A stretch of DNA of 64,000 nucleotides from Chrysomallon squamiferum (Eukaryota > Animalia > Mollusca). Within the stretch, counting starts at the first letter, position 1. Each line of letters starts with the position of its first letter. This document shows, one piece after another, positions 633-58,763 of the stretch. Under the pieces are notes generated by a model, which ran no database searches, had not been told where the DNA came from, and saw only the letters and a program-made list of their open reading frames with translations. Location: assembly GCA_012295275.1 (NCBI GenBank), contig CM022675.1, forward strand, positions 1,426,001-1,490,000. Direction: 5' to 3'. A program made the translations under genes and the position numbers.

Positions 633-10772
<10,140 letters not shown>

Positions 10773-10917
10773 CTTAAAACAAAATTTAATATTTGTGATT
10801 CTGAAACGTTTTAACATTTTCATACCATCTTTAAAAATAAAAATAATAATAATAGTATCAATAATAATTTTTTTTATAAAAATAATAATAGTAGTAATAG
10901 TAGTAGTAGTAGTAGTA

Positions 10918-10963
<46 letters not shown>

Positions 10964-11069
10964 GAAGAAGGAGACCTTTGACCTAATGTGTAATTAAGTA
11001 ATTATGTGATAATCAGTGACTACAAGTACTTCTTTTCATATAAACATTTAATATTTTTAAAAATTACGT

Positions 11070-18947: not shown

Positions 18948-18997
<50 letters not shown>

Positions 18998-19295: not shown

Positions 19296-19465
19296 CTAAA
19301 TCTGGTGTTTGTTGACATCTTCCTTCTTCTGATTGGACTTTTTCTTCCTCAGGAAGACGACCACCACAATCCCAATGACAAGTGAGAAGATGATCACCAT
19401 AACAACACAGAGAACAATCAGAATCGTGTTGTTGACATCAACTTGATCAGATCCATGTTTTTTAC
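19296..19465 (-). CDS. G2 TM and tail exon
   Basis: [55 protein letters not shown]. Confidence 0.87.
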
Positions 19466-19616
19466 CTAGAATGAAGTAAGATTTTAAATATCACATGCTT
19501 GTTTTTTTTCTTGTAACTAATATCTATTAAAGAAAATCTGCATTCAGAAAACTAATCACGAATATGAGTTAAGTTGAAGAAAACAAATTACTGCTACAGA
19601 TCTGACATAAACTCAC

Positions 19617-19734
19617 TTGGTGTTCGATCTTCCACCAACACATCCAGAACAGAAAATGTTTTTCTCACAAGTTCATCAGACGTTTCAGCCGATCTTCGTT
19701 TTCTTCCAAACCCTTTCTTGCCATTGCAGTCCAC
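19617..19734 (-). CDS. G2 furin/EHP exon
   Basis: VDCNGKKGFGRKRRSAETSDELVRKTFSVLDVLVEDRTP. Confidence 0.88.
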
Positions 19735-19958
19735 CTGACATTGAAAATTTCTGTGTGAAAATTTTAACTCAAACTATAATGTAATTGTGTCATTTTTTTA
19801 TTCTATAGGAAAAGTTAACTGTGTCTCTTTGTTGAAAGATGAAATACAGAAAGTACGACTACTTGATAAACAATAATATTATAAAAAATAATAATATTAA
19901 TAATAATACTAATAAATAATAACAATCAAATTTAAAAATATAAAAACAGACGAAGAAT

Positions 19959-20019
<61 letters not shown>

Positions 20020-20070
20020 ACTATGAACAAAATAACAGAAAACAGTGACAACAGAAATGATAAAACTTAC

Positions 20071-20236
20071 TGGGTCACACAGAGATTTTTGATCTGGAGG
20101 ACAAACTTTGACAGAACATTCTGTAGAGACTGCGTTGTTTTTGTTAAAGGTGAAAGCTTTCAACTTGAATGTGACGTTGTTTCCTGATCTTTCAGGCTCC
20201 TGTATCATCAGTTTACCGATCTCAGAAGACGGGCAG
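20071..20236 (-). CDS. G2 ZP-C exon b
   Basis: CPSSEIGK...FKLKAFTF...[17 protein letters not shown]. Confidence 0.88.
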
Positions 20237-20636
20237 CTGAGTAAAGGAACCAAATTTTCCAGTAATCAGCACCAAATATAATTCTTCTTTAATTATTTGA
20301 TTTCCACTGAAACATCAGTGCCTGGTTGTATAATTAAAACTTTCTGAGAGGGTGTCAAATTGATGACTAGATAATTAATTACAAAACATGGATCCACTTT
20401 CTTTTCAGAATATATTAATAATGTTCGTTTTTAGAGTGGCTGAAATGTATCAAAATTGTTTAATTATATTAAATAACTAACAACAAGTATACACCGTTTA
20501 CTCAGATATAATTATGACATTTAAAAAAAAATATTTTCAGAAATAATGAGTCCCTCTCGAGTTAAAAACCAACTTATTTAGGTGTTTGACTGAACGGAAA
20601 TTCTAAGAAATAAATGTGCTAAAATGAAAGTATTAC

Positions 20637-20730
20637 CTGTTTTCAATGATTTTCAGAGTTTCACTGTCTTCTCCAGTTTTCTGATTATCAGCAGTACATG
20701 ACTCCACTCTGACAGTGCCTGTTTCTGGTT
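20637..20730 (-). CDS. G2 ZP-C exon a
   Basis: [30 protein letters not shown]; alternative in-frame acceptor at 20736. Confidence 0.83.
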
Positions 20731-21165
20731 CTGTTTCTAATATATTACAATAATACTGCTTGTCAAAGTTGTTATTTAAAACAAAATTATATTCTTTGCT
20801 ATGAGTAGTAATCAAAACTATGATACAACTGTGGAGTTAAATATAATGTTTTTTTAGAAATTCCTTTTGCAGGTTAATATATAAGTAACTTTTAATACTA
20901 CTCAAAGTAACATTCATTCATTTATCATTTTATTTCATGTTAGAAAAAGATAATATTGGAGAAAAATAGTATTTTAGACAAGTTTAAAAATAATCTGGAG
21001 CATCAGAAAGCCTTAATATTTATTGATAGAGAGAACCAATTTTTAATAGAGTTTCTTTAGAAACAAATTTTAGTAAGAAACAAACAAGGTACAGCTCAAT
21101 AATCAGTGTAAAATGTGATTGCAGTAAAACTGATAATAATAAAATAGCGTCCGTGTCCATCAGAA

Positions 21166-21256
<91 letters not shown>

Positions 21257-21403
21257 CATCATCATCATAATAATAATGATAACTGTAATTAAAATAAAAG
21301 ATATAAAAAAGCTATAAACAAGTACAAAAATATATAAACGAATAAATATATAAATAAATAAATAAATAAGTAAAATAATAATAACAATAAGAACAACAAA
21401 AAC

Positions 21404-21453
<50 letters not shown>

Positions 21454-21622
21454 TAATAATAATCATCATCATCATAATAATAATGATAACTGTAATTAAA
21501 ATAAAAGATATAAAAAAGCTATAAACAAGTACAAAAATATATAAACGAATAAATATATAAATAAATAAATAAATAAGTAAAATAATAATAACAATAAGAA
21601 CAACAATAATAACAACAAAAAC

Positions 21623-21668
<46 letters not shown>

Positions 21669-21804
21669 TAAATAAATAAATAAATAAATAAATAGATAAA
21701 TAATTAATTTTTTTCAGTAGCACAGGTTGAAATTCATACATGTAGTGCCTAGCACAAAATTAGTAAAACTAGAAACGTAATAATTGACACAGGTTGACAG
21801 TTAC

Positions 21805-21971
21805 CAGCACATATCACACCAGCATCGTTTTCATGTTGACAGTCAAAGTTACCCCATTGAAAATTACACTGTTGAAGACTTGTTTCATTTCCCAAACAGT
21901 GAATATCACGAAGAATGATAGGTCCTGATCCTTCACCAAAATAAGAACTACCAACTGCTGTTGCATTTGAA
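21805..21971 (-). CDS. G2 SRCR4 second half
   Basis: [55 protein letters not shown]. Confidence 0.9.
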
Positions 21972-22358
21972 CTGTAAAACATAGGGGGTGGCATCTTCAA
22001 ATATGTAGTATTAATGTGCATATATCATGTTATATCTTAAAAATATATTTAAAAATTAAAATATTTTGTTTTCATTATAGTGGTTAATTATAAGCTAAAA
22101 ATAATAATATAAAAAGTTTAGATATATTATACTGGGACAGATTTTTAGGTGAAATTTTCAAGTTATTCTTTTTTTAAATTTATACTCCTAATTACTTTAA
22201 TTATTCACTAATATGATTATTCTGATAAGAATAAATAAATAAATAAATAAATAAATAATAAATAAATAAAAAATAAAAATAAATAACTATTATTAATTTA
22301 GTGAAACACGGTATTATGAAGTAAATAGCTATCATAATAAGCATTATTAATAACTTAC

Positions 22359-22515
22359 TTAGTGAAACCCAGCATTCTGCAGTAAACAGCTGCGTTGTAA
22401 TCAGTATGAAATTTATCACAGACTGTGCCCCACATTCCAAGATATTTAATCTCTACTCGACCTTCTCGTTCTGAACTGCCATTCACCAGACGAATCTTTA
22501 TCTGTTGATTATCTT
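22359..22515 (-). CDS. G2 SRCR4 first half
   Basis: [45 protein letters not shown]. Confidence 0.9.
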
Positions 22516-22672
22516 CTGAAAAAAAAATCTAGATTTTTCATAATGTCACAAAATATAACATGAAGGATATCAAAATATTTAACATCATTTATTTCTCTCT
22601 GTGTGTTATTCTGAGAACACAAATGAAAGATGAATGGTAGAAATAAACTGACTGTTATGTAAGACACGTTAC

Positions 22673-22842
22673 CTTCACACAGCAGAGCTAGAAACTTGTC
22701 ATGACTGGAATCTTCAATGTTAAAGTAACATTCTTTAAAGCTCTTTTCCAGTCCTGAACATTTTACTTCCGATATCCAACCTTTTGGGTTACTGGAAGTC
22801 AGATTAGTTTCAACCGATTCCACTAATACTGCTCCGTAACTT
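22673..22842 (-). CDS. G2 SRCR3 second half
   Basis: Matches G1 3871-4040. Confidence 0.86.
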
Positions 22843-23212
22843 CTTTAAAAATACAATTAAAAGAGATACATATTATATATATCTTATATAGTAAATAAAA
22901 CAATAAAAATAATAATATTATCTTTAAAGTTGTTCTTTTTCTTCTTCTTGTCATCCTCCTTTATTATTGTATTCAGTATTATTATAATATAAAAACAGAA
23001 GAAAACAAACTGATAAACTCATTGTCATCATATTATTAAACGGTTTTCGGGTTTTAAAATATCGCACATTCTTAATTACATTCTTTTATGTCACTCAGCA
23101 ACTAATTGTAATGTTGTTGTTTCTCTAGATTTTACTGTTATGATTATTTTCTCATTATGAGGAACTGATACACAGTTCCAGCTGGTACTTATCAGCTTCG
23201 ATATTGACTTAC

Positions 23213-23369
23213 TCGTTATATCCAAGTGTTCTGCACAAAACTTTAGCATCCGCGGGAGAAGGTCTCGAATCATAAAGTCTGCCCCACTCATTGTTTATTT
23301 TCACTTCAACGACACCGTAGTTACTGTCTGGACCATCAACTAGTCGTAATTCAATGTTTGATATGTTCA
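23213..23369 (-). CDS. G2 SRCR3 first half
   Basis: [27 protein letters not shown]...CRTLGYN. Confidence 0.88.
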
Positions 23370-23615
23370 CTACAAAATTAACATAAGAAATAAATAATAG
23401 AAAATAAAGTAAAATAATAGAAATCAGGAAAAAACAACATTAACCTTCATTTTCCTCTAAATCTGATTCTTCATGTAAACTCTATATTAATTTAGTGATT
23501 CCTTGCAAATTATACTCTAATCTGATATAAAAAAGCAAAATAAAATCATTAAATAAGAATATTAATTGAACATTCTGCATAATTTAAACTGAACTAGTGT
23601 TTTTAAAGTAAATAC

Positions 23616-23767
23616 CTGAACATTTGATTTGTACAGATTTACATCCAGAGTTTACATTGCGATGACCCAAAACACACAGATGAAGAGCAGGTTCATAACC
23701 TTTACATTTAACTTGATACATCCATATACCATCAACAACATCTTTACCAGGTAGATAGCTTTCGAGT
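23616..23767 (-). CDS. G2 SRCR2 second half
   Basis: Matches G1 4814-4965 (N to D change). Confidence 0.86.
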
Positions 23768-23824
23768 CTGTAAACACAAATAAAACGGTTATCTAATAAT
23801 ATAGATGACTGGAAGTAATGTTTT

Positions 23825-23969
<145 letters not shown>

Positions 23970-24298
23970 CCACTGCAAACTGCTAACACACGACTTCACT
24001 GGATAATATTTACGACACAATCATAAAACGATTTAAGAGCAGAACAGAAAATCTATATCTAACTGTTGATGATTTTGATGACAAACTGAACTTTGAAGAA
24101 AAATATTCTGTAACTATATGAGCATATATTATTATCTATATTATTAAATAAGCGTTTTAAACGGTTTCAACAATTACAACAACAACAAAATAATAATAAT
24201 AATAATTGTTCTTTATCAATATCGTTGACGTTGTTGTTATTATTATTACTATGCATATATTATACAAATTAACGGTGTTATTAGAGACGTTTACTGAC

Positions 24299-24455
24299 GC
24301 TGCATAGCCCAGTTGTCTGCATACAACACTTCCTAAGTCGTTGTCCGCAACTGTAGAACACACAGATTTCCATTTGTCATCATCAAATACTTGAAGTTTT
24401 CCTTCTTGCTCATTTGGCCCATCCACCAGTTTCAGTTTGTATGGTGCAGGGTTTT
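24299..24455 (-). CDS. G2 SRCR2 first half
   Basis: Matches G1 5458-5614. Confidence 0.88.
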
Positions 24456-24848
24456 CTTTTTATATTGGAAAAAAAAACATTATTTACGGCTTGTTGTAAT
24501 ACATTATCACTTATACTTACACACATATATAACTACAGTGTATACGTCATAAGTAAGAACACTAATAATTCTATTGCCTCTGCAAGTAATTGATGAGTTT
24601 TATCCTTCTAGTTTATTATTATTTTTTATTTTTTTTTTTTATATTTCATATACGTTCATCTGTTCAGATTTCGGTTAAGGTGTTTTTGATTCGTTTGACT
24701 GAATCAATTATACTACTACTACTACTACTACTACTACTAAAAATAATAAGTAACAACAGTAATAATACAATAACAATAATAATTATAATTATAATACCAT
24801 CAGAAATAATCCCAAAATAAGGGCTATGATGATGATGGTAATAATAAC

Positions 24849-24932
<84 letters not shown>

Positions 24933-24946
24933 AAGAAGAAGAATAC

Positions 24947-25113
24947 CATCACATATAATCCCAAAATAATCAGGGAGATGAGTACGAGTTAAATACTTCC
25001 AAGTGGCACAGTCATCAACATCCATTTCAAAACCATCACAATGTGTATTAAAAAATAATACCGGTGCATTTGTGTCTGGAAAGAAACTTCCATCACGTGG
25101 CATTCCAAACGCA
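24947..25113 (-). CDS. G2 SRCR1 second half
   Basis: Matches G1 6112-6278. Confidence 0.86.
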
Positions 25114-25363
25114 CTGGTGAATAGAAACAGAAATTTAATTGTAACATCAGTGCAAATATACTTTAATTAATGCGATATTAACAGATGCATGCATTTACAT
25201 ATTTAGTTCATTAGACACGTATATATTATATATAACTCATTTTTAAATTTATTGTATGATATTTTCAATTAATACTGAAGTCAAGAACCTGTAAAACAAT
25301 TAGCCATTTTGTTTTCCTTTGAGTTTATTCTTTCTACATACTTGTACTTCACAAAACAGGATT

Positions 25364-25494
<131 letters not shown>

Positions 25495-26407
25495 ATTAAA
25501 TGCAGTTCTTTGAAACTCAGTGTACTGTATTACGTAGTAACACCCAATTTGTCTAATGTAAACTCAAGTGCTGGAAGTAAGTAAAAGTGTTCTTTAAATG
25601 TTTAGAATTCGCTCTCATTGACTTATAAACAACACAAGGACAAAAACAACTACGAGTCTTATAACGATAATTCTCTTCTTTTCAGCCATAAGTTTGTGTG
25701 TGTGTGTGCGTTTTGGTTTTTAGAAAACATTGGCATCTAGGAAATCGAAACGCAACAATGGTTTTAAAAATATCAAGTGCAGTTAATTGAACATCAAAGC
25801 AGTGTCTATTGAAGGGTAGCTCATATTTTGTTATTACATATTTGGTCTTATATAGAAACATATCAAATTATTTTATTGATATATTTAATACGTAGGTAAC
25901 ATTACAATGTTTAGAGTTATATCCTTTTATTTATATATTTACTATGTCACACATCTGATATAAATAATATATATATATATTGTTATTAATATATTTCCAA
26001 TATTACATAATGCTTCTTTTTTAGGTAAGTATTCCAACTTTTTGATGGTGTGGGTTTTCCATAGTACATACTGGATGGAAAAGAAATGTTTTGTCTGTTA
26101 AGAACTCTAAAACTTACAACTGGAGAGTTGGGAGACATTCTTTGATAACATTTGTATATATCTCTTTTTAATCTATAAACACACACACACATCCACAAAC
26201 GCACGCACAAACAAACTAACACACACACATGCACACATATGTGGATAGTATTTTTAAGTACATATTTGCCTCACTACCTTTACTAGAAATACTTTTTCTA
26301 GTTTTTTTGATGTTGTAACAGTTGTTATTACAGTTACGTTGTAGTGGTGATGATGGTGTTAGCAAATATAACACAATGTTTATTAGAGAAAATTCGTATT
26401 AACTTAC

Positions 26408-26549
26408 TTGTTGAAGCCGAGAGTTCTACAAACCACAGTGGCCTCAAAGTAGTAGAAATTCATACTGATAACGTGGCCCCAGGTACCGTCGTTCAAAACT
26501 TCTAGTCGACCTTGTTTAGTTGTATTACCACCAGCCAGACGAACACTCA
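26408..26549 (-). CDS. G2 SRCR1 first half
   Basis: Matches G1 7638-7779. Confidence 0.88.
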
Positions 26550-26915
26550 CTTCATAGATGAAAAACAAATATACAATATATTTTTATTAACACACACACG
26601 TCTTAACACGTATACAGCTGCTGCTGAAATGTGGACATTTTTAACTTATATGGTGTGAAAAGTTCAAGAAGAGAAGACACAGTGAACTCACAACTGAAGA
26701 GGGAAACCATTGACTACACAACGACTGGTTCAGAATTGAGAAGAAATATATGTCCATTCTATTAAATTGTGGAAAACTGTTTAGGAATATTTTATTAGCA
26801 GTTTAAAAATAGGAACTTTACACTTTTAGGACAAAACTCCACAACGTATTAGTTCATCAACATGAAGTGAATATTTGATGTGTTTCTTATTATGCTGTTA
26901 TAGACCCACATTTAC

Positions 26916-26960
26916 CTGGCTTAAGATCTCTAATCTTTTGTGGTACAGTCGCGCTCAAAT
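26916..26960 (-). CDS. G2 45-nt linker mini-exon
   Basis: Matches G1 8146-8190. Confidence 0.72.
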
Positions 26961-27078
26961 CTGTGAATAGAGAAACGAAAATCTGCAAAAATGTCATTAC
27001 GTTATTATTTGTACTGTCGTTGTGGTTGTTGTTGTTGTTTGATTATTATTATTATTATTAATAACATCATCATCATCA

Positions 27079-27139
<61 letters not shown>

Positions 27140-27171
27140 GTAAAATATAAGAAGAAACAGCATTTTCTTAC

Positions 27172-27315
27172 TTGTAGAAAATTCAAATGTAAGTTCTTCA
27201 TCTAAAGAGACAGCTGCTGATTCTGAAACTGAACGACCTGTTTTTGAGGTTGATGTTGAACTGGAGAAGAGAGGAGTCTATTGAGCTAACTGTGTTTGTG
27301 ATGTTCTGTCCGTTT
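27172..27315 (-). CDS. G2 ZP linker/IHP exon carrying a +1 frameshift
   Basis: gaaCgacctg vs gaagacctg in G1; reads NRSFSFRISSCLFR* (stop 27198-27200). Confidence 0.82.
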
Positions 27316-27693
27316 CTGCTGAATAACATTAGAAACAAACACACGTAAAACCTAATATCATAAACAAGATTAATATTCACACTTTGAACATATACATTTT
27401 CTTCCTCACTATAACCAATGGTTTTAATTGCACAAATAAATCACAAATCTTGATATATGAGATGAATTGGTAAACTACTCAACTATTAACTTCGTATTTA
27501 GAAATAACTTTTATAAAAATTTAACATAAAAATAAACTGATAAGTGAATGAATAAACGAAACTAAGAGATACAACACAAACATACGTATAATTGTCAGCA
27601 CAATTATTACTACTACGACTATTACAGCTACTACTAACAGTTTTATAGAAAACTACAGTTTGAAACAGAGAAAAGAAGAAGATAGTAACTAAC

Positions 27694-27845
27694 ACGATAA
27701 GGTCTTCGCTTGTGATAACTTTGGTGACAGTCACAGTTGTAGCAGAATCGTTCTTCTCACAAGTGACAGAGACTTTTGTGTCGAGGTTTGTCATAAACTT
27801 TTCACTGAACTGAATGATCACATCTCGAGTTCGACCTCCATTTAG
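27694..27845 (-). CDS. G2 ZP-N exon b
   Basis: Matches G1 8921-9072. Confidence 0.86.
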
Positions 27846-28038
27846 CTGTAAAAACGAGTCACAATTGCTATAGGTAGGTACAATACTATTTCAAATATGA
27901 CATCTAATATTACTGTATACACAGAAAACATGCACATTTTTTTTGTTAATATGTTTGCTGACAACAAAATTCCACAACCCCCGAAAAAGTTATATCTAAA
28001 CAAATTAAACTGCCAAATAAATATGTAAAGAGCGAAAA

Positions 28039-28089
<51 letters not shown>

Positions 28090-28110
28090 AAAGAAATGGT
28101 TGGAACTAAC

Positions 28111-28298
28111 CTGAGTGATGCCACCACAGTCACTATCCTGAACATTCAGAGCCACACCCTTTTTTCCGGCGGGTAGATCTGATTTTGTGAACGTACAACC
28201 TGTCGTGTCTTTCTCACCTTTAACATAGACGACACCACTGAATGTTCCAGCAGGATTAACGACAATCAACATAGAACTTTTCTGACAGGAAACTTCAT
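28111..28298 (-). CDS. G2 ZP-N exon a
   Basis: Matches G1 9306-9493. Confidence 0.88.
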
Positions 28299-29495
28299 CT
28301 GAAATAAATAATTTGTTCTTTCTCATACATGCAAACTGAAACAATATTGTCAAACCAAGAAGTGTCGATATCGCTGGAGCGAATGGATAAAGTCGATTTA
28401 ACACGAATATCGACAGAAGCAATAGACAATGCTTCGCACTGAAAATGAAGTATATGCACTTGGATGGATTTAGTTTTATATTAGACATTTTAAATATTTA
28501 GCAATCAAGAATCAATTAATGCACGTACAAAATTAGTAATCGTAGTCGAACACCTTTAATCAGATCACTGCTGTGTGACAAGTTGCTGGTTGCGTTGATG
28601 ACGTGCCAACCGAATCCATATTTTCTACAATTAGTGAAACTTATGTCACTGCATCTTCAGAATGTGAATAAAATTATTAAATTAATTTTAGGAACCATGA
28701 ACTTCTAACAGAAATGAAAATGTTTTACAGAAGCACAGATACAAATTTCTTCACAATATATTTGACTAATTAACAGAGTGTTTCAATGAAGTCTGTTGCG
28801 TACTGGTGCGAAAGTTAAATAGCTACGAAAGTCTCAAATATAACGGACTGCATTTTGCATTGACATCTGAGCTCTCCACAATCTGAGCCAAGAAATGTAG
28901 AGTCTCTACTGCTGAAAGGTGTTTTTGTTCTGAAAAATCAGAGCCTCATTATTCTTCGTATCAATCTATCAAGGCCAGGTACAGCGGGGAGAGGTACAAC
29001 TTCTTCAACACTGCTTTACTGTGACACTGGGACACAGCTGATTCAGTTAAAATCACAACTGGAGACTCTTTTGAATCTGTTACTTTAACAAGGCAGAAAC
29101 AACAGTTAATTGTTCACACAGACATTTTATCCCACGAAAGTTTAAAAATCTGACTCCATCAAAAACAAATGCTCAAATCTATATTGTGTTCCTATATTTA
29201 ATTATGATATGTTATCGATGGTGCACTTTTTTACTTTGAATCGTACACTGGTTCACTGGTTGAGTATGACTCGTGGTGTTTGGGTGAAAGAGATTTTAAT
29301 TTTATATTAGTCACACGTGTGTGGGGTTTGTAGAATACACATACAAAACTGGTAACAAGTTTAATAAATGGTAATGTTGGCAATAACTGAGAAATGATCT
29401 TGCATTCAATAGTAATAATATAGTTACGTAAAATATAATGTATCATTGTTATTATTATTATTATTATTATACTAGAAATAAAGTAAATAACTCAC

Positions 29496-29594
29496 ATCTT
29501 TTGTTTTCACAATCATCTCCATATAAATCAGATTGACAGAAATGAGAGAAGACTCGTAAACTGCCGTAGCCTGAACCATAGCCTGAACCATAGC
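29496..29594 (-). CDS. G2 remodelled EGF2 exon
   Basis: YGSGYGSGYGSLRVFSHFCQSDLYGDDCENKR. Confidence 0.75.
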
Positions 29595-29735
29595 CTTAAA
29601 ACAAAATTTAATATTTGTGATTCTGAAACGTTTTAACATTTTCATACCATCTTTAAAAATAAAAATAATAAAATAGTATCAATAATAAATTTTTTTATAA
29701 AAATAATAATAGTAGTAATAGTAGTAGTAGTAGTA

Positions 29736-29784
<49 letters not shown>

Positions 29785-29895
29785 GAAGAAGGAGACCTTT
29801 GACCTAATGTGTAATTAAGTAATTATGTGATAATCAGTGACTACAAGTACTTCTTTTCATATAAACATTTAATATTTTAAAATTACGTTACTCAC

Positions 29896-30015
29896 TTTTC
29901 TTCTGCTCACAGTTGTAGCCAGTGTAGTCATTTCCACAGTCACAGGTGCCATTTTGACAAATTTTATTATTAGCACAATCCTGACCTTGTCGTCTGCAGT
30001 CGAAGTACTCTTCAC
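29896..30015 (-). CDS. G2 EGF1 exon
   Basis: [39 protein letters not shown]; six Cys. Confidence 0.9.
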
Positions 30016-30257
30016 CTGTAAACAAGTACAACATTACAACAGACGATAACTTACAAGTATAAAATACATCCTCACGGAATTAATTTAAAACAAAACTAAA
30101 CGAATGAATGCATGAATAAATAAATTAATTTTATTTTCAGCAAGCCCAAACCAAAAAAAAGATATATAATTTATATCAGAAAAGAATCAATATTTGATTT
30201 ATCTAGGTGTTTTTTTTTCTTAATTATGTGACTGGAAAGAATCGTAGGAAAAATTAC

Positions 30258-30309
30258 CTAGTGTGATGGAACAACTTAGAAGTATCAGATATACGAATGA
30301 TATCCACAT
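30258..30309 (-). CDS. G2 signal-peptide exon (coding part)
   Basis: [17 protein letters not shown] then G|gtaatt; acceptor ttttcag 12 nt before the ATG. Confidence 0.85.
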
Positions 30310-30984: not shown

Positions 30985-33473
<2,489 letters not shown>

Positions 33474-38393: not shown

Positions 38394-38513
<120 letters not shown>

Positions 38514-38663
38514 ATTTATTTCCTACTTTGATAACCGGAGGTCAACGCTAGTTGTCGCCAACGTATAAAGAAGAAGCATACCATCAAATTTAGATAACAA
38601 GAAAATGTATATTGATTTCTTTTTTTATTTTTTTATTTCTTCTTCTTCTTCTAATGATTTTTG

Positions 38664-38707
<44 letters not shown>

Positions 38708-38711
38708 GTAG

Positions 38712-38748
<37 letters not shown>

Positions 38749-38749
38749 G

Positions 38750-38789
<40 letters not shown>

Positions 38790-43233: not shown

Positions 43234-48087
<4,854 letters not shown>

Positions 48088-48287
48088 NNNNNNNNNNNNN
48101 NNNNNNNNNNNNNNNNNNNNNNNNNNNNNNNNNNNNNNNNNNNNNNNNNNNNNNNNNNNNNNNNNNNNNNNNNNNNNNNNNNNNNNNNNNNNNNNNNNNN
48201 NNNNNNNNNNNNNNNNNNNNNNNNNNNNNNNNNNNNNNNNNNNNNNNNNNNNNNNNNNNNNNNNNNNNNNNNNNNNNNNNNNNNNNN
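48088..48287. other. Assembly gap (200 N)
   Basis: Joins mid-exon G3 to the 3' flank of G4. Confidence 0.95.
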
Positions 48288-48423: not shown

Positions 48424-48567
48424 TCAACTAAATTTGTTGACATCTTCATTCTTCTGGTTTGACCTTTTTTTCTTCAGGAAGACGATCACAACAATCCCGA
48501 TGACAAGTGAGAAGATCATCACCATGACAACACAGAGAACAATCAGAATCGTGGTGCTGACATTAAC
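48424..48567 (-). pseudogene. G4 orphan TM exon remnant
   Basis: [47 protein letters not shown], preceded in frame by TAA TAA; normal ttctag acceptor absent. Confidence 0.7.
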
Positions 48568-48952
48568 TTATTATTCAGGAATAATAAGAAAAAAGTTGTA
48601 AGCAAATTAGCGGGTTTAGAAACAGAAAATTGGAAATTGCAACTTTTAGCTTTAGACAGTTTCACCAATTTATCCTTTCCTAGCATGCGTATCTTACTGT
48701 AAGTGTGTTTGTTAGTTGTATTTTCACAAATTCATCTTTGTTATTTCGTAGTAACCAAATTGTTTTGTCAGTTATTTGATCAGCTTTGTCTGGTATTAAA
48801 TTGACTATCAGCTACCGTTCTTAGTCCTTTTCTCATTCCAGGGCCTGACTGGATTTACATTTCAGGGGAGATAAACATTAACAGGGCTGTCTTACAGATA
48901 CTATGTGAAGAAAATTGAGCGTATTATTAATATTATTATTATTAGTAGTAGT

Positions 48953-48984
<32 letters not shown>

Positions 48985-50168
48985 TTTTTTAACAAATTAT
49001 TTGAGGACAATACGAAAAATGTATTTAACAAATTCTTAGGTTTTGAAATTAGCAAAGTTCAAGCTGTAACTTAATATTTAAATATATTTATTCTCTCTTA
49101 TAGCATTCTATCAATTTCAAATTATGATATATTTAGATATGTTCATTCTTTCTTGTAACATTCTATCAATTTCAAACTATGATTTATATTAAAATATATT
49201 CGAATTGTTTCCTTCGATAAGACTGACATTGCGTCTTTAAGTATGTATGTAATTGTTTTTTGACAACAACAAAAAGTTGTCCGTTGTTTTGTGTCAGTTT
49301 TCTCCCCGTTTTTTCTGCCTATTAATTTAAGTACGAGTTATCATTCTTTGTCTTTTTGTCATATTAAAGGTTGAAAGAGATTTATATTTCAGGGGAGATA
49401 ACTTGCTATGTTTAACACTCTTCTTTCCCATTATAATAGTAAACTATCGCCTTTTTTTCCTTTGTTTTCAAATTGTATCTAAAAAAATGTATCTAATAAC
49501 TACTATTATAATATAATAATAACCAGTGTGACAATTATGTTCACTTTTATCACTGACAGTCACATAGACATCATTCTGTGATGTGCATATTTTAAGCTGA
49601 CAGAATAAAACACTTAAAATAAAATTACTAAAACTAATCTAACAGTTTAGAAGAAAATATTGTAACTTACTGGTTCACAGAGAGATTTTTGATCTGCAGG
49701 ACAAACTTTGACAGAACATTCTGTAGAGACTGCGTTGTTTCTGTTAAAGGTGAAAGCTTTCAACTTGAATGTGACGTTGTTTCCCGATCGTTCAGGTTTC
49801 TGCATCATTAGTTTACCGATCTCAGACGATGGGCAACTGAATAAAATCAAATATCAAATAGCATTTCTCTTTAGTTTTCTCGATCTGAATAAACTCAAGT
49901 TTTTTTTCAGAAAAAAAATCGCTTATTTCAGCTTTTAGAAGTTATAAAGTTATTTATTCCATAATAATTAGTCTGCAGTTCGGTTGTTTATCAAGAGGTA
50001 ACTAATATATGTAAAATATAATTATGTGAATCAAGCATGTATCTAGATTCTTGAAATAAAAATAAATAAAAACAATACTGCTACTACTACTACTAGTAAT
50101 AATAACAGTATATGTTTATAAATTCATAAATACAATAAAAATGCAAAATTAAAATAATAATAATAATA

Positions 50169-50202
<34 letters not shown>

Positions 50203-51372
50203 CGCTCAGTATTTTCTAGTGCTTCTCGGAGGCGACTGAAAATCCATGTTCATCAGTTCTGTGCTAAACAAGTATAAGTATATAAAACAACTGTTAAAAT
50301 AAAAGTTTACCTGTCTTCAATGATTTTCAAAGATTCAGCATCTTCTCCAGTTTTCTGATTATCAGCAGTGCATGACTCCACCCTTATAGTTCCTGATTCT
50401 GGCTCTGTTTAAAATAAATTGCAATATTCGTGTTTACAGATGTTGCTATCTCAAACAAAATTATATTGTTTGCAAGGAGTTATAGTGAAGATTATGCTAA
50501 GAGTTGGGAATTAAATGTGATCTTTTCTAATATTTTTATCAGCATAATTTAAATAAATAAATAAATACATAAATAAATAATTAAATAATTTCATAGAACT
50601 TTAAGAATAATTACAAGCGTTAATGATAATAACAGCACATATTTAGAGACAAACATTTCTTTGGAAAGTACAGAGTAGCATTCCTTTAGAACTCTGTGGA
50701 TGATAATAATACGGATAATTATATAATTAAACTGTACTTAAAAATGGAAGATACATTCTGAAAGAAAAAGTCATTTAATACAATATTTATTCTGCATCTG
50801 TGTCTATATGTGCGCTTGACATTATTTTTCATTTTTATATTTTTTTTTGTTTTATTATTCTATTATTTTTATTTGTATTCGTATTTTTTTATATAGTTAT
50901 TTATCTGTTCATCTATTTATCTTTTACAAGAAATAAGAAGAAGAAAAAAGAAGAAATTACTATTACTGCTACTACTACTACTTCTTCTACTACTAATCCT
51001 ATTTATTACTAGTACCACTACTACTACTACTACTACTATTATTATTACGACTACTACTACTACAACTAATAATAATAATAATAATACAATATCAATAACA
51101 GTAAATAAATAATGGGTGCACATATGTTTAAAACACATCGTTTTTTTAAGACGTTATATATTTTCAGCTGTTTTCGTAGATTGGGAGTGTTAATTTTCTT
51201 AATCATACAGTTCAAATGACAGGTCTGCAATACATATATTATTATAACTCTTAGACCTACTCATAGCAGTAGTAGTACTAGCACAACTGTTTATTTATTT
51301 ATATATTTTATTTATTTATTTATGTATGTATTTATTTATTTATTTTAATTTTTATTTTTATTTTTATTTTTA

Positions 51373-51403
<31 letters not shown>

Positions 51404-52891
51404 TTTGTATTTTGTGCTCATGGAAAACAGTAGCTGATATTTCTTAAACAAAAATATTATGAACAACAGCTGAAAACAGGCATAAAACTAGTAAAACTAC
51501 AAACTAATTAAAAGTGGCTGAGAGTTACCTGCACATATCACACCAGCATCTTGATCGTGGTAACAGTAAAAGTTGCCCCATTGAAAATGACACTGTTCAA
51601 GACTCGTTTCATTTCCCAAACAGTGAATATCACGCGGAAAGATAGGTCCTGATCCTTTTCCAAAATAAGCACTACTAATAGCCGTTGCATTTGATCTGTA
51701 AAACATGGAATGAGTCATTTGAAAATATATTTCTTAACTGTCATTACATTTATAATAATCGTTCTTACAATGATGTAGTGAATAGTTTAGTGTCTTACGT
51801 AATCAAACAGCTATCATAATAATCATGATTAACAAAGTAGTTGCAACTATTATAATAATCATCATTAGTAATTTCGAAAAGAAAGAGATATGTGTCCTAA
51901 AAGTAATACCAAAAAGAATAATAAAATCTAAATACAAAATCGAGTCTACTATTCATAATTATTATCAATATGTTATTCCACTTATGCTAGCTTTCTGAAA
52001 TAAACAATATTATAAATAACTTAGTAACAACAGTTAACTTTCTTAATAAAACAAAACACTCTCCTGTAAAATAGTTATTATTATTAATAACTTACTTCGT
52101 AAAACCCAGCATTCTGCAGTAAACAGCTGTTATAATACTCATTATTAATAACTTAGTTAGTAAAACCCAGTATTCTGCAGAAAACATCTGTTATAATAAT
52201 CATTGTTAATAGCTTACTTAGTGAAACCCAGCATTCTGCAGTAAACATCTGTTATAATAATCATTGTTAATAACTTACCTAGTGAAACCCAGCATTCTGC
52301 AGTAAACAGCTGCGTTGTAATCAGTATGATATTTATCACAGACTGTGCCCCACATTCCAAGATATTTAATCTCTACTCGACCTTCTCGTTCTGAACTGCC
52401 ATTCATCAGGCGAATTTCAGTTTCTGCTTTATCCTCTGCAGTAAGAAACAAAAGCCTATAACAAACTAAAATTTCTTGTCATCTCACAGATACACACAGT
52501 TTTTCACTTACATTTTATCACATTATTAATTTCCTTGTGTTTTGTCTCTAATACAATGAATGTTATTTTGTATAGAAGAAATCATTAAACATGTGGTAGA
52601 GGTTTAGTGACTGCTGTCTAAAATACATTACCTGAACACAGCAGGGCTGTGTACTTTTCATGACCATCGTTTTCACTATATGTAATGTGACACTCATTCA
52701 TGTTCTTTTCCAGTCCTGAACATCGGACACGTGATGTCCAAATGTTTTTGTTTGTTGACCTAAGATTATGCTCACGTTCACTCAGTAATATTGCTTTATA
52801 ACTTCTTTAAATAAATATATAAAAAGTACATCAATTTAAATAGAGTAATTATGTCAGTTTTTATATCAGTTTAAATGTTATATGGATGTCA

Positions 52892-52956
<65 letters not shown>

Positions 52957-55221
52957 GCTTTATTAGCATTAGTACATGGTTTCAAGTGTTATTTGACTGA
53001 TTTAATATTACATTCTGTTTCTACTTACTCGTTATATCCAAGTGTTCTGCACATAACTTTTGCATCCGCGGGAGAAGGACTCGAGTCATACATTCTGCCC
53101 CACACATTGTTTATTTTCACTTCAACTACTCCGTAGTTCCTGATTGGACCACCAACTAATCGTAATTCAATGTTTGATATGTCCACTACACAATAAACAT
53201 AAAACATAAAATCAATGCATTCTCTTTTTTTTGTATATTTCACGTATACAGACCTTATTATTATTTTTTATTATTTATTTATTTTTTTATTTATTTTGGA
53301 ATCTGCAGTAAACAAATGTAACTCTTATAATAAGAGTGTACTCTGTAGTTGGATGTTGATATGTTTTTCGTAGTGCCTGAACTTGACAATATGACAGGAT
53401 GATAAAAGTAATATAAGAACATTAAGTTTTCTTCTATTCTAAACTGTTTTCTCTATATAAGTCGCTAGTGTTATTCGATAAAGATTGGACAGTAACCGAA
53501 ATTGACAGTGTTAACATTAATACCTGAACACTTAATATGTACAGATTGACATTCACTCTGTTCATTCCGAAGTTTGAGAAGAGACAAATGCAGAGCAGGT
53601 TCATAACCAGCGCTGAAATACTGATACTTCCATATATTTCCAGTAACTGTTTCAGTATTAACATAGATTTCTGATCTGTGAAGAAACGCAGTCAAAATAA
53701 AAATAAAAGTAAAATGTTATTCAAAAATATATCTCAGTGGTAGGACATTATAAATGTTGAAATTTATATCAATATATTTTCTATGTATATTTAAACGTTT
53801 CTATGTGGCCTTGTGCGTATGTATATATTTACGATAACATTAGTACTACTACTATTATTACTACTATACTACTGCTGCTACTACTACTACTACAACTACC
53901 ACTAATTATTATTTTTATTATTATTATCACTATTATTATTATTACTATTATTATTATTATTATGTTTGCATTTAAAAAGACGTACTAACTTTGCATAACC
54001 CATTTGCCGGCAAACAACGTCAGCGTTTATTCTCTCAAGGTCGTCTGTGTTACACACTGTATTCCATTTTTCATCATCAAATACTTCAAGGTTTCCTTCT
54101 TGTTTGCTGTTTCCACCGACCAGTCTCAGTTTGTACGGTGCAGGGTCTTCTGTTATAGTAGAACAAAACACAAAGTTTATTCTTCATCAATGAAGAGCCA
54201 CAACAACAATTATGATGATAATTATGATAACAGTGATGATGATGATGATATTGATGAAGATGATGATAGTAAGATTTCTATACCGTCACATATAATTCCA
54301 ATATCTTCTCCAGTGCAGCCATCACCACAGTCAATAATCTCCCAGCTAAAGCAATCATCTACGTCCATTTCAAATCCATAACACACTAAATCACCTTCCC
54401 AAATTTGTCCAGTTCCTTCTGGGAAGAATCCTTTACCACGTGGCAGACCAAACGCACTGTAGGACAGAAACTGAATTGTAACAGCAGTGTTAACACACAC
54501 ATATACACGATATTATTTTTATGTAGTTATTAATTCATTTATTTATGTATTCTTTATTTTTTTGTTGTATTACTTCTTTACACACACACACAAACACGGA
54601 CTTCGAAAGGTAGAAATACAGCAAGAAACAGAACTATTTGCTATCAACTTACTTCTTGAATCCGAGAGTTCTACAAACTGTAGTAGCCTCATAGTAGGAG
54701 AAATCATCAGGCTGCAGTCTGCCCCATTTACCATTGTACAGAACTTCTACTCGACCTTCTTTAGTTGTGTTACCATCAACTAGGCGAAATTTCACTTTAT
54801 AATAAAATAGTAAACATTAATAATAATTCAAAGGACATTCCCAAGCATTCGTTAGGAACTGTTTGCGAGTAGTTTGAAAATGAGAAAGTCGACAGTCTAA
54901 AGTCAAGACTAAAAACTGAAACAATTCAGCAACATAAAGTAAATAATTAAAGTCTGTAGTTATAATGCCGTACATATTTGTTACCTGGTTCAATGTTGGC
55001 AACCTTTTCTACTAGCTCTTCTGTCAAATCTGAGAATAAAAATAAACTAAGTGAATAAATAAGTAATAAAGCTAAAGCTCCAAAAAAAAAAAAAAAAAAA
55101 AAGAATAAAAGAGAAAAAAGCACTCGATGACGCGAAATCAGAATTAATTAATGACAGCTATTATTAATATTATTATTATTATTATTATTACTACTACTAC
55201 TATTGTTATTATTATTATTAC

Positions 55222-55270
<49 letters not shown>

Positions 55271-55692
55271 TCAATGAAGAAAACGTGGGAAACAACAAGT
55301 TGCTCCTACTTGTAGAAAACTCAAATGTAAGTTCTTCATCTAAAGATACAGCTCCTGATTCTGAAACTGAAGACCCGTCTTTGAGGCTGATGTTGAACTG
55401 GACAAGCGAGGAGTCTATTGAGTTGACTGTGTTTGTGGTATTCAGTGTGTCTCTGTAAAATAACATCAAGAGGTATCCCAGATGTCCAAACTGTCCACCA
55501 TTTTAATAATTTTATACAAATTGCCATTCCCCTTTTTTATGTGTAATATCCCAAAGTAAAATATTGATACTTGAAATGGAATGTTGAATGTATTAAGTTC
55601 ATCTTCACGGAAATGTTAATTCAGTACTAACCACAATTGTAAGTAAAGTTATAGACATTCCAGGAAAGAAAGAAAAATATAATAATAATAAT

Positions 55693-55726
<34 letters not shown>

Positions 55727-56404
55727 TTTATAACGAACCTTTCAGTTTCTTTGGTTGTTATCACTTTGGTGACAGTCACGGTTATGTCATCGTTGTTTTT
55801 TCCACTACAAGTGACAGAGACTTTTGTGTCGAGGTTTGTCATATACTTTTCACTGAACTGAATGATCACATCTCGAGTTCGACCTCCATTTACCTTAAGA
55901 GCGAGTCAGAGTTACACAAGTTATGTTCAGTCAATGTCTAATACCACGTTGTACAAAGATAACAACAAATATTTTAAAACGATTTTAATACGACTTTGTA
56001 CAAAGATAAAAACAAATATTATAATTCTACAAATAACCGAATGTTAAAATCTGTTTTATTTAAACAATTTATGGAAGTAGCTAAGTATTTAAACATATTT
56101 CATTTAGAAAAAGCAATAAAAATAAGGAAAATACGAAGTATAAAAATAATAAAAAGAACTGACCGGAGTCACTCCTCCACATTCACTATCCTTAACATTC
56201 AGAACCACGCCCTGCTTTCCCGAGGGTAGATCTGATGACGTGAATTTGCAACTAGGCGCGTCTTTTCCACCTTTAGCATAGACGACACCATTGAATGTTC
56301 CAGAAGGATAAATCACAATCAACATAGAACTTTTCTGACACGAAACATCATCTGCAAATTGTAAGATTAGTATTTGTTAGCAGGAATAATCATGATGATT
56401 GTGA

Positions 56405-56454
<50 letters not shown>

Positions 56455-57553
56455 ATAATAATAAACATTGAATATAAAAGAAAGCGTATTTGACATCAAA
56501 TAATATAATTAAGCTTCCTTTCAGATTAATTTAAATGAAAAAATGAATCTGACAGCATAATTTCTGTGAGACAGTTTAAATCTGTTATAAGCTTGAATAT
56601 TATCTTACTACTATATCTTTTGTTATTTATTTATTTATTTTGTATTACTGGCAGGTGAAAAGTTTATTAAATAACAGTAATCTCAGTTAATATAAACGCA
56701 TACACACATATATATATATAATGAATGAGCATACTGAAAACAATTGGATTGTCATCTTCCCTTCATTGCCACGATATAAAAATAAGTATTATTTTGTTAA
56801 GTAGAATGAATTACTCACATCTTTTGTTTTCACAGTGGTCACCATAGAAACCAGGTGGACAGAAACACGCCTTGTTTCCATTATCATTGTAACAGATACC
56901 TCCATCAGAACCACAAGAGTCAGTCTGATTGGTACATGGACTTGAACCACTCAAACCTGAAAACACAAATTTCGTATCTGTCATGATATAAAGATAAAGT
57001 AAATAAACCAAAAATCTACCTATATCGTCTTGCTTTTTTTGATGATATCACTGCAGTTACCCACACTTGACATATTAGAATTACAATACTGACTTTTCTC
57101 CAGCTCACAGTTGTAGCCAGTGTAGTCATTTCCACAGTCACAGGTGCCGTCATTTTGACAAGTTTTATTATTAGCACAATCCTGACCCTGTCGTCTGCAG
57201 TCGAAGTACTCTTCACCTGTAAACAAGTACAACATTTTAACATAGGATAACTTTCATAACTGAAAATTGTTATTGAATAAAAAAAAATAAAAAAAAATAT
57301 ATGTGACAGATTTTACTTTAAATTGCAATAGAGGTAGTAGGAATAATAATAATAATAAAATTTAAGAGAATATACGTTAGGAAGAATAATGTTTTGACCA
57401 GTATAAAATAAAGAAAGCAGCATATCGAAATTATACAGTCATCAACATTTTTGTTTCAAATTTTATTTATTTATTTATTTAGAAATATTAATCATTTTTT
57501 TATATTTTTAATGTGAATTATATAGTTTTTAAAATGATTTCACTGTTCAGATG

Positions 57554-57585
<32 letters not shown>

Positions 57586-57878
57586 CGTATTTAATTACTG
57601 AAGTCGTCTTGTTCTTAACACTATTTAACCATGTAAACCAAAACAAATATATATCATCATTTAAAGGAATTGTTTCTAAAATATTAATGTTATAATTTGA
57701 ATGATGTATTTTTTTTAAATATTTTGTTCCACTGTTTGAACTATGTATATTCAATTTCTTCTTCTTTTTGTGACAACAAACACATACAATATTTCTATAA
57801 AGAAACAGAGACGAAAATAAAGTTACCTAGAGTGATGGAACAACTTAGCAGTAGCAGATAGACGAAAGATATCCACAT
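48424..57878 (-). CDS. G4: most divergent paralogue; signal peptide, 2 intact EGF, ZP-N, 4 SRCR inside ZP-C; furin exon not found and TM exon lacks its acceptor
   Basis: Exons 57878-57827, 57216-57094, 56956-56819, 56351-56164, 55893-55739, 55452-55310, 55029-54985, 54794-54653, 54456-54284, 54149-53990, 53675-53524, 53185-53029, 52804-52632, 52435-52279, 51695-51529, 50404-50311, 49836-49671 (795 open codons); TM remnant about 48567-48424. Confidence 0.87.
49671..49836 (-). CDS. G4 ZP-C exon b
   Basis: [55 protein letters not shown]. Confidence 0.88.
50311..50404 (-). CDS. G4 ZP-C exon a
   Basis: [30 protein letters not shown]. Confidence 0.86.
51529..51695 (-). CDS. G4 SRCR4 second half
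   Basis: [55 protein letters not shown]. Confidence 0.9.
52085..52311. repeat. About 61-bp tandem repeat (4 units) made from the SRCR4a exon end plus its donor site
   Basis: Unit taacttac-t-agtgaaacccagcattctgcagtaaacatctgttataataatcattg; 3 units in G1 (about 3395-3555), 2 in G2 and G3. Confidence 0.85.
52279..52435 (-). CDS. G4 SRCR4 first half
   Basis: [51 protein letters not shown]. Confidence 0.9.
52632..52804 (-). CDS. G4 SRCR3 second half
   Basis: [57 protein letters not shown]. Confidence 0.86.
53029..53185 (-). CDS. G4 SRCR3 first half
   Basis: [51 protein letters not shown]. Confidence 0.9.
53524..53675 (-). CDS. G4 SRCR2 second half
   Basis: [50 protein letters not shown]. Confidence 0.85.
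53990..54149 (-). CDS. G4 SRCR2 first half
   Basis: [52 protein letters not shown]. Confidence 0.9.
54284..54456 (-). CDS. G4 SRCR1 second half
   Basis: [57 protein letters not shown]. Confidence 0.88.
54653..54794 (-). CDS. G4 SRCR1 first half
   Basis: [46 protein letters not shown]. Confidence 0.9.
54985..55029 (-). CDS. G4 45-nt linker mini-exon
   Basis: tctcag|AT..CCAG|gtaac; [14 protein letters not shown]. Confidence 0.75.
55310..55452 (-). CDS. G4 ZP linker, IHP and first ZP-C strand
   Basis: [47 protein letters not shown]. Confidence 0.87.
55739..55893 (-). CDS. G4 ZP-N exon b
   Basis: [51 protein letters not shown]. Confidence 0.87.
56164..56351 (-). CDS. G4 ZP-N exon a
   Basis: [36 protein letters not shown]...[10 protein letters not shown]. 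Confidence 0.9.
56819..56956 (-). CDS. G4 EGF2 exon (intact)
   Basis: [45 protein letters not shown]. Confidence 0.9.
57094..57216 (-). CDS. G4 EGF1 exon
   Basis: [40 protein letters not shown]. Confidence 0.9.
57827..57878 (-). CDS. G4 signal-peptide exon (proximal copy)
   Basis: [17 protein letters not shown] then G|gtaact. Confidence 0.82.
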
Positions 57879-58078
57879 ATTTACTTTATACTGAAAAGAA
57901 GATTAAATAAATAAACAAACAAACAAAGAAACAAAGAAATTAATAAATTAATAAACTCATCACCTGTAAACAAGTACAACATTTTAACATAGGATAACTT
58001 TCATGACTGAAAATTGTTATTAAATAAAAGAAAAACAAAAATATATATATTGTGATATATTTTAGTTTAAATTCCAAT

Positions 58079-58196
58079 AGAGCTAATAGAAAAGGTTGCC
58101 AACATTGAACCAGGTAACAAATATGTACGGCATTATAACTACAGACTTTAATTATTTACTTTATGTTGCTGAATTGTTTCAGTGTTTAGTCTTGAC
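58079..58196 (+). repeat. Inverted ~118-bp copy of 54902-55019
   Basis: Reverse-complement match; the ORF track shows the same [18 protein letters not shown] peptide on opposite strands. Confidence 0.9.
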
Positions 58197-58206
58197 AACA
58201 ACAACA

Positions 58207-58298
<92 letters not shown>

Positions 58299-58711
58299 AA
58301 AATAGAAGAGAATAGAAATTAGGAAGAATAATGTGGAGAGAATCAGTAGTTATGTTGGGACCTGTATTAAATAAAAAAGCAGCATATCAAAATAAAACAG
58401 TCATCAAACTTTTTGTTTCATATTTTATTTATTTATTTATTTATTTATTTATATTTTTAGAAATATTAATCATTATTTTACTTTTTTTTATCTGAATTAT
58501 ACAGTTTTTTCAAAATAATTTAAATTGATATATATATATATATATATACAGTATTTAATTACAGAAGTCGTCTTGTTCTTAACCCTATTTCACTATGTAA
58601 AAAAGTATATATCGTCATTTAACGGAATTGTTTCTAAAATATTAATGTTATGTTTCAAATTCAGACACATACAATATTTCTATAAAGAAACAGAGACGAC
58701 AAGAAAGTTAC

Positions 58712-58763
58712 CTAGAGTGATGGAACAACTTAGAAGTATCAGATACACGAATGATATCCACAT
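58712..58763 (-). CDS. G4 signal-peptide exon (distal duplicate)
   Basis: [17 protein letters not shown] then G|gtaact; lies within a local duplication (57961-58810 vs 57214-57930). Confidence 0.7.

Follow-up and report, generated by a model that had tools for sequence, protein, structure and literature searches.

Evidence for a four-SRCR cassette spliced into the ZP-C domain of an EGF-ZP protein family in the scaly-foot snail

The window analysed here is a 64,000-nucleotide, AT-rich (28% GC) stretch of contig CM022675.1 from Chrysomallon squamiferum, the scaly-foot snail, and it carries four tandem copies (A to D) of one gene on its minus strand. The gene encodes an EGF-ZP protein in which a cassette of four SRCR domains is very probably spliced into the interior of the ZP-C domain as a real feature of its architecture. 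ZP modules are usually treated as closed units with accessory domains at their ends, whereas here, when homologues from a second species are included, two unrelated folds are found inside ZP-C at one fixed loop. This loop is therefore a natural and testable attachment site for domains on a ZP module, and it probes which surfaces of the module are needed for polymerisation.

Exon chain of copy A

Copy A (57878-49671, minus strand) consists of 17 exons (E1 to E17), every border of which is AG/GT, and the joined frame encodes 795 amino acids with no stops. The order of domains is signal peptide, EGF, EGF, ZP-N, linker, ZP-C strands A and B, cassette, and the remainder of ZP-C. All motifs through the end of E17 that were quoted in the initial annotation, a reading of the sequence alone, are present. 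The start codon and a signal peptide, seen as a hydrophobic leader of 17 residues, are located in E1 (57827..57878), and are followed by two six-cysteine EGF-like domains in E2 (57094..57216; weak Pfam match) and E3 (56819..56956; Pfam EGF_2, 1.6e-4). The four cysteines of ZP-N are divided between E4 (56164..56351; Cys109, Cys139 and Cys162), which encodes the first half of the domain and matches the ZP-N-type profile CUT_N at 3.9e-05, under the curated cut-off, and E5 (55739..55893; Cys196), which encodes the second half and the interdomain linker. The end of this linker, the internal hydrophobic patch and ZP-C strands A and B are assigned to E6 (55310..55452) from profile alignment and a homologue model. 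The strand carried by this exon ends in FEFST, and the exon itself ends at a phase-1 donor. On its own, E6 has no ZP match in Pfam, PDB or Atlas.

The cassette opens with E7 (54985..55029), a 45-nucleotide, phase 1-1 exon that encodes a 15-residue linker and is also present in copies C and D. Each SRCR domain is then split between two exons: SRCR1 (54284..54794) between E8 (54794-54653) and E9 (54456-54284), SRCR2 (53524..54149) between E10 (54149-53990) and E11 (53675-53524), SRCR3 (52632..53185) between E12 (53185-53029) and E13 (52804-52632), and SRCR4 (51529..52435) between E14 (52435-52279) and E15 (51695-51529). SRCR4 is of the six-cysteine, group-A type, and E15 closes the cassette. When 16 exon peptides were scanned with Pfam, seven of the eight SRCR half-exons matched SRCR and E11 gave no match; SRCR4 has PDB matches in addition. 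There is no CUB match in these 16 scans, and the exons of the chain all have other domain assignments. ZP-C resumes from strand C onward in E16 (50311..50404), which has a phase-1 acceptor and is supported by RNA joints. It continues in E17 (49671..49836), which carries Cys741, Cys780, Cys785, Cys793 and the FXF motif (residues 768-770, the same in copies B, C and D) and matches positions 86-133, the last third, of the ZP-C profile PF00100.

Position of the cassette within ZP-C

The initial annotation had proposed that about 440 residues of SRCR domains lie between ZP-C strands B and C, and that a ZP match would be split around them. The measured cassette (E7 to E15) is 1326 nucleotides, or 442 amino acids including the linker, and the reading frame stays open once it is removed. 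A profile built solely from four insert-free EGF-ZP proteins of chiton and abalone aligns on either side of it in copy A, with profile positions 10-283 on residues 6-269 (9.6e-39) and positions 288-370 on residues 715-795 (6.1e-12). Since these two pieces are collinear, the insert stands in place of the roughly four-residue connector that joins strands B and C. With the cassette deleted from copy A, the same profile aligns as one piece (168.5 bits), and copy D behaves in the same way. The proposed position is thus borne out by this two-piece alignment as well as by the homologue model described below. Phase-1 introns flank the cassette on both sides, and therefore its in-frame gain, loss or skipping is possible. 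No start codon, signal peptide or stop lies within it.

Splicing of the cassette in RNA

Three added RNA runs (X1, X2 and X3) of one study were used. Contigs of run X1 provide 14 joints on copy A and nine on the 3' part of copy C at 82-95% identity, and runs X2 and X3 provide no joints. The E6 donor is joined to SRCR1 (E8) in two of these contigs, with sides of 74 and 25, and E15 is joined to E16 in two contigs, with sides of 86 and 66. One contig of 442 nucleotides covers E15-E16-E17-E18, where E18 is an exon present in copies B, C and D. The contigs also show exact GT-AG skips of 467, 474 and 400 nucleotides that match predicted introns. SRCR exons are therefore spliced to ZP exons at both borders, which makes the separate nested gene that had been a concern of the initial annotation unlikely. 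Continuity through the whole cassette in one transcript can be presumed from these joints.

Relatives in Gigantopelta and other molluscs

A homologue search with an alignment of E4 against 1.84 billion representatives gave 27 matches, from which the 12 single-stretch ones were taken and eight of these looked up, and six are proteins of the deep-sea vent snail Gigantopelta aegis. Out of 7991 candidates, a follow-up search gave six matches, and these include EGF-ZP proteins without an insert from a chiton and from two abalones; a third insert-free abalone protein was obtained as a cluster member. Single-exon word searches with E4 and with E17 returned no homologues, and PDB sequence searches with G. 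aegis P0011 and with one alignment returned no ZP chain.

The closest relatives found are the G. aegis RefSeq models XP_041371612.1, XP_041372195.1, XP_041347291.1, XP_041373445.1, XP_041373053.1/54.1, XP_041371836.1 and XP_041371611.1. The G. aegis models share 39-64% identity with copy A in aligned blocks as well as the same insertion point, and SRCR-type junctions are found at both borders. The SRCR-type models are fragments that are named 'uncharacterized', 'EGF-like domain-containing' or 'SRCR group B-like'. One of the G. aegis proteins (P0003) proceeds from EGF-EGF-ZP-N and strands A and B into three SRCRs, and another (P0032) proceeds from half an SRCR directly into strand C and on through the transmembrane segment.

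In contrast to the window genes with their four SRCRs, some G. aegis models have one or two PAN domains at this site, or nothing. There is one PAN in P0007, one in P0008 and two in P0028. The complete protein P0002 has an insert of about 80 residues that aligns to G. aegis PANs and has no Pfam PAN call itself, P0009 is insert-free, and in P0011 a short unassigned stretch is located there. P0008 and P0028 are isoforms X1/X2 of G. aegis LOC121386274, and they differ by one near-identical PAN unit inside ZP-C. Our conclusion is that a single ZP-C loop carries interchangeable SRCR or PAN cassettes in what is an apparently undescribed spliced variant of the molluscan EGF-ZP family. Trees of 11 and nine rows, built without other ZP families, were mostly unresolved and leave the gains of SRCR and PAN unordered.

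Predicted fold of a split ZP-C domain

The PAN-type homologue P0002 was modelled with AlphaFold2 from an alignment of 22 rows (pLDDT 66, pTM 0.41), and the best structural matches of the model are ZP structures. With VIA, 142 of 166 residues were aligned to betaglycan ZP-C (Z 11.5, root-mean-square deviation 4.0, model residues 239-475) and 120 of 129 to ZP-C of the uromodulin filament (Z 9.9, root-mean-square deviation 3.1, model residues 244-446 on chain residues 456-584). Residues after the insert make up 121 of the betaglycan-aligned range and 92 of the uromodulin-aligned range, and therefore at least 21 and at least 28 aligned residues precede the insert. This preceding part starts at the hydrophobic patch (F456 in uromodulin), and some of it may be end strands of the insert. 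Foldseek gave TM-scores against betaglycan ZP-C of 0.52-0.59 over 240-250 columns for P0002 and of 0.52-0.56 over 182-186 columns for an insert-free chiton control (pLDDT 59). In the P0002 model, the homologue of the strand that resembles an external hydrophobic patch (EHP) aligns within ZP-C. The ZP-C sandwich is thus predicted, in this PAN-type homologue, to close around its insert.

Proposed mechanism and alternative explanations

Intact copies would encode a membrane-anchored precursor whose ZP-C domain folds around the cassette. The cassette itself may have arrived by exon shuffling into a phase-1 intron, and it may be tolerated because the N and C termini of an SRCR domain adjoin each other (PMC7043408). 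A furin-type cut at RKRR would free the protein from the membrane, after which it would enter a ZP matrix, possibly together with insert-free EGF-ZP partners. The fast-evolving SRCRs would then be exposed as binding modules, perhaps for the organic matrix of shell or scales or perhaps for microbes. We assign a probability of roughly 0.55 to this joint mechanism of folding around the cassette, cleavage at RKRR and display of SRCRs on a ZP matrix. In its favour, the hydrophobic patch, FXF, RKRR, the EHP-like strand and the transmembrane segment are all retained, with the tail being found in copies B, C and D.

The two parts of the protein evolve at different rates. Across six copy pairs, the ratio of nonsynonymous to synonymous substitution (dN/dS) is 0.03-0.21 in ZP-C exons and 0.63-1.47 in SRCR exons, and a test of this contrast in four pairs gave p = 0.002, 0.035, 0.015 and 3e-7. 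Each of the 14 complete SRCRs has four or six cysteines, with losses occurring in pairs; for example, SRCR2 of copy A lacks one cysteine pair that copies B, C and D retain. A signal of positive selection on SRCR2b (copy B versus copy C: pN 0.238, pS 0.051, p = 0.015) was rejected, as it fails correction for 48 tests.

A number of observations weigh against the proposed mechanism or against the architecture on which it depends. There is no contig that spans the cassette, the longest piece among the matches listed being 686 nucleotides, and the E1-2, E14-15 and E18-19 joints are unbridged in run X1 contigs. All joints come from one of the three runs, and their 82-95% identity indicates that they derive from relatives or paralogues instead of these copies. 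For G. aegis, the evidence consists of computed gene models, of which several are truncated. The protein that was folded has a PAN-like insert in place of SRCRs and a pLDDT of only 66 with a pTM of 0.41, VIA reports first and last aligned residues only, and ZP-C folds are part of the predictor's training data. Furthermore, every copy in the window is incomplete or broken.

Doubts also attach to binding and assembly. In the motif register that presumably corresponds to D1019/D1020 of DMBT1, none of the 14 SRCRs keeps both acids, and A-SRCR1 has its DD one place out of this register. Mutation of either D1019 or D1020 abolishes DMBT1 binding, and by sequence comparison the DMBT1 cation site appears to be lost in the window SRCRs. 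Within ZP-N, the window copies have Arg where abalone has Tyr on the strand before the ZP-N F, and Gly or Lys where abalone has Phe two residues past the last ZP-N cysteine. These two columns are presumably Y402 and Y427 of uromodulin, residues linked to polymerisation, and hence both tyrosines appear to be lost in the window copies. Finally, uromodulin has V487 on strand B, F499 on strand C, and V495 at the interface of ZP-C and ZP-N (PMC7737619). Because V495 is in the B-C connector, an insert at this place could hinder filament assembly. The exposed sperm-binding glycans of egg-coat filaments have been placed in the B-C region too (PMC7737619).

One alternative, which we regard as rather unlikely, is that the architecture is as described and the ZP module does not polymerise. 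Perhaps it acts as a folding and shedding scaffold, like that of endoglin or betaglycan, for an SRCR receptor or adhesin that is either tethered to the membrane or shed by furin. The apparent loss of both polymerisation-linked tyrosines (under the presumed mapping) and the location of the insert near the filament interface would fit this explanation, as would the weaker constraint on ZP-N relative to ZP-C (dN/dS 0.58 versus 0.16 between copies A and D) and the existence of other ZP proteins that do not polymerise (PMC7456536). Against it, the family still has its hydrophobic patch and FXF motif as well as RKRR and an EHP-like strand. In addition, the insert-free chiton protein likewise lacks both tyrosines in register, and therefore their loss is not tied to the insert.

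It is improbable that alternative splicing makes the cassette optional and that these genes mainly yield an ordinary EGF-ZP protein free of the insert. Skipping of this phase 1-1 block would preserve the frame, the G. aegis isoforms of LOC121386274 do differ by one PAN unit, and P0009 of the same species has no insert. However, four contigs connect the cassette borders to ZP exons, and the SRCR exons are open in all four copies despite identities of only 50-82% between copy A and copies C or D. No E6-E16 skip joint is among the joints listed, which has no evidential weight since contigs drop rare forms. A separate nested gene or an assembly artefact is very improbable. Points in favour of one or the other are the two N gaps (11070-11269 and 48088-48287), the 96-98% identity of copies C and D along about 7.6 kb, and the breaks at or near the cassette in public models of relatives. 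Against both, the exon order is the same in the three copies that show both borders (with copy A and D proteins 64-79% identical), spliced joints cross both borders, the same junctions recur in G. aegis, and the cassette lacks its own start codon, signal peptide and stop.

Comparison with known ZP families

The molluscan shell-matrix 'EGF-like domain-containing protein' belongs to the EGFZP family as defined in PMC9290575. Members of this family share with the window genes a signal peptide, two EGF domains, ZP-N, ZP-C, a basic cleavage site and a transmembrane segment, and the homology of Haliotis XP_046358760.1 and XP_067687180.1 and of Liolophura XP_064596416.1 to the window genes is collinear over the whole length. 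The signal peptide and both EGF-like domains are found in copy A, and the second EGF is degenerate in copies C and D. The B-C connector amounts to four profile positions in EGFZP proteins, whereas in the window genes the ZP module is interrupted there by 442 amino acids.

In DMBT1, CUB domains and a ZP module that is intact follow the SRCRs. DMBT1/hensin and the lophotrochozoan protein LZP1 resemble the window family in having SRCR and ZP together in one protein. Unlike them, the window family has no CUB, its cation site appears not to be intact, and its SRCRs are inside ZP-C instead of ahead of an intact ZP module. LZP1 is listed as having a signal peptide, at least one SRCR, ZP and a transmembrane segment, and LEZ proteins with EGF, SRCR and ZP are noted in the same source (PMC9290575).

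Uromodulin and ZP3 filaments share with the window family the ZP-C fold, the FXF motif, a cleavage site and the logic of an EHP, and they offer a precedent for a ZP filament that bears binding branches (PMC7737619). The additional modules of those filaments are either branches at the N terminus or a small subdomain at the C terminus, in contrast to the whole domains found in the B-C loop of the window family. No description of whole domains inside ZP-C was found in the literature covered, to which most subscription journals do not belong, and no domain inside ZP-C is described in the available parts of PMC10855680, PMC7333891, PMC7456536, PMC13361971, PMC11673550, PMC11871041 and PMC7895826. 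To this extent the view of the initial annotation that no protein with this layout has been described holds, although the family itself has probably been published under another name.

Relation to the published 'DMBT1' expansion

For Chrysomallon, as many as 65 'DMBT1' genes in tandem, with SRCR numbers of 0-5 and high expression in scale epithelium and mantle, have been reported (PMC7142155), and the number is given as 70 in PMC7736800. Like the window family, the published array on Chr11 is tandem, and SRCR number per model varies from 0 to 5. Several geometrical features of these models (PMC7142155) agree with those of the window genes. The first SRCR begins at residue 174-175 in five models and at 174 in copy A if counted from Met114. 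In one model, a partial ZP (PF00100 at 420-496) comes after four SRCRs, and the 5184-bp span of this model compares with 5124 bp for E8-E17 of copy A. The other PF00100 row among 251 is at 172-202 of this same model, within its second SRCR region. There are also seven unannotated models of 0.9-1.26 kb that lie 225-591 bp upstream of 'DMBT1' models on the same strand; for comparison, E4-E6 of copy A span 1042 bp and the gap from E6 to E8 is 515 bp. For the array, the available text deals with how many SRCRs there are and where in mantle and scale epithelium the genes are expressed, and does not cover flanking EGF or ZP domains.

On the basis of this geometry, as opposed to the sequences themselves, the window family is probably the published 'DMBT1' expansion, annotated as genes split at the cassette. 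Such proteins escape domain scanners because a ZP-C in two pieces receives weak scores and because the cassette is where gene models break. If the identity with the published expansion holds, the scale-linked expansion of the scaly-foot snail would be re-identified as EGF-ZP matrix proteins instead of DMBT1, the count of 'DMBT1' copies would change, and some 'novel genes' would move into a known family. A broader and more tentative possibility is that the ZP-C B-C loop of peltospirid vent snails acts as a plug-in socket. Exon shuffling could swap SRCR arrays and PAN domains in an EGF-ZP subunit and thereby yield filaments with variable binding heads, in which case the 65-70-copy 'DMBT1' expansion would be the same family seen in halves and the armour matrix may be a modular ZP polymer.

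An 'EGF-like domain-containing 1' gene is near the top of the scale-epithelium list in Supplementary Data 5 of PMC7142155, and a family of this name is listed as expanded, with nine copies, in Supplementary Data 1. These genes could be insert-free or other partners.

Tandem copies and the fate of copy A

The initial annotation had ended the copy A protein in a 'VDC-RKRR-TM' tail, which proved to be absent from this copy. The exon encoding RKRR and the EHP-like strand (E18) and an intact transmembrane exon exist only in copies B, C and D. No E18 was found with blastn or tblastn between 49670 and the gap at 48287. In place of E18 and the start of the transmembrane exon there is a 1.1-kb segment (48570..49665) that is unique within the window and includes a 119-bp direct repeat of 71% identity. 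This is followed by a 5'-truncated remnant of the transmembrane exon (48433..48569, minus strand), with homology that continues to 48383. Reading through past E17 leads to a stop after seven residues. Rescue of the tail by a cryptic acceptor was rejected, as none of 61 upstream AG sites reaches the remnant in frame. The predicted copy A product therefore lacks the last cysteine, the cleavage site, the EHP and the transmembrane segment. Secretion fails in uromodulin that is cut ahead of its EHP (PMC7737619), and for this reason copy A, barring an assembly error at this place, is likely dead; we judge it to be probably non-functional.

Copy B (43234..48087, minus strand) begins within SRCR2, after the N gap at 48088-48287, and extends through E18 (43693-43576) to the transmembrane exon (43403-43234). 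Copy C (19296..30309, minus strand) has all 19 exons, a degenerate EGF2 exon and one E6 base more than copy D. In copy D (633..11069, minus strand), E3-E19 form an open frame of 804 amino acids with one terminal stop, and E1-E2 are out of view at the N gap 11070-11269. Copies C and D, near-identical for 7.6 kb on the 5' side, differ at the 3' end, and therefore part of the copy number may reflect haplotype duplication or gene conversion.

The comparison of C with D is a mosaic, with 0-2 nucleotide differences per exon in E3-E13 and a dS of 0.18-0.33 in E14-E17. E14-E17 of copy C are close to copy B instead of copy D, which points to recombination or conversion. The extra base of copy C, at about 27234 in an E6 that is otherwise identical to that of copy D, indicates either a pseudogene or a sequencing error. 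The EGF2 exons of copies C (29496-29594) and D (10674-10772) are 99 nucleotides long and in frame and retain two cysteines, with the rest of the domain replaced by a short Gly-Tyr-Gly-Ser repeat.

Several repeats accompany the family. A 61-bp tandem repeat of 3.8 copies at 52080-52312 reproduces the E14 3' end including the donor, and further copies of this exon end are present in copies B and D; they are possible alternative donors. The 5' end of copy A is partly duplicated at 57955-58840, and the duplicate holds an orphan exon for the signal peptide (58763-58712) as well as intron 1 and the opening bases of E2. In the same interval, 118 bp of the E7 region are present in inverted orientation (58079-58196). 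The segment 35117-45388 corresponds to 11270-21409 at 92% identity, and thus a gene 3' end and about 8 kb of spacer are duplicated. Finally, there is a 1.6-kb element that occurs in alternating orientation near 13783-15392, 31896-33472 and 37613-39214.

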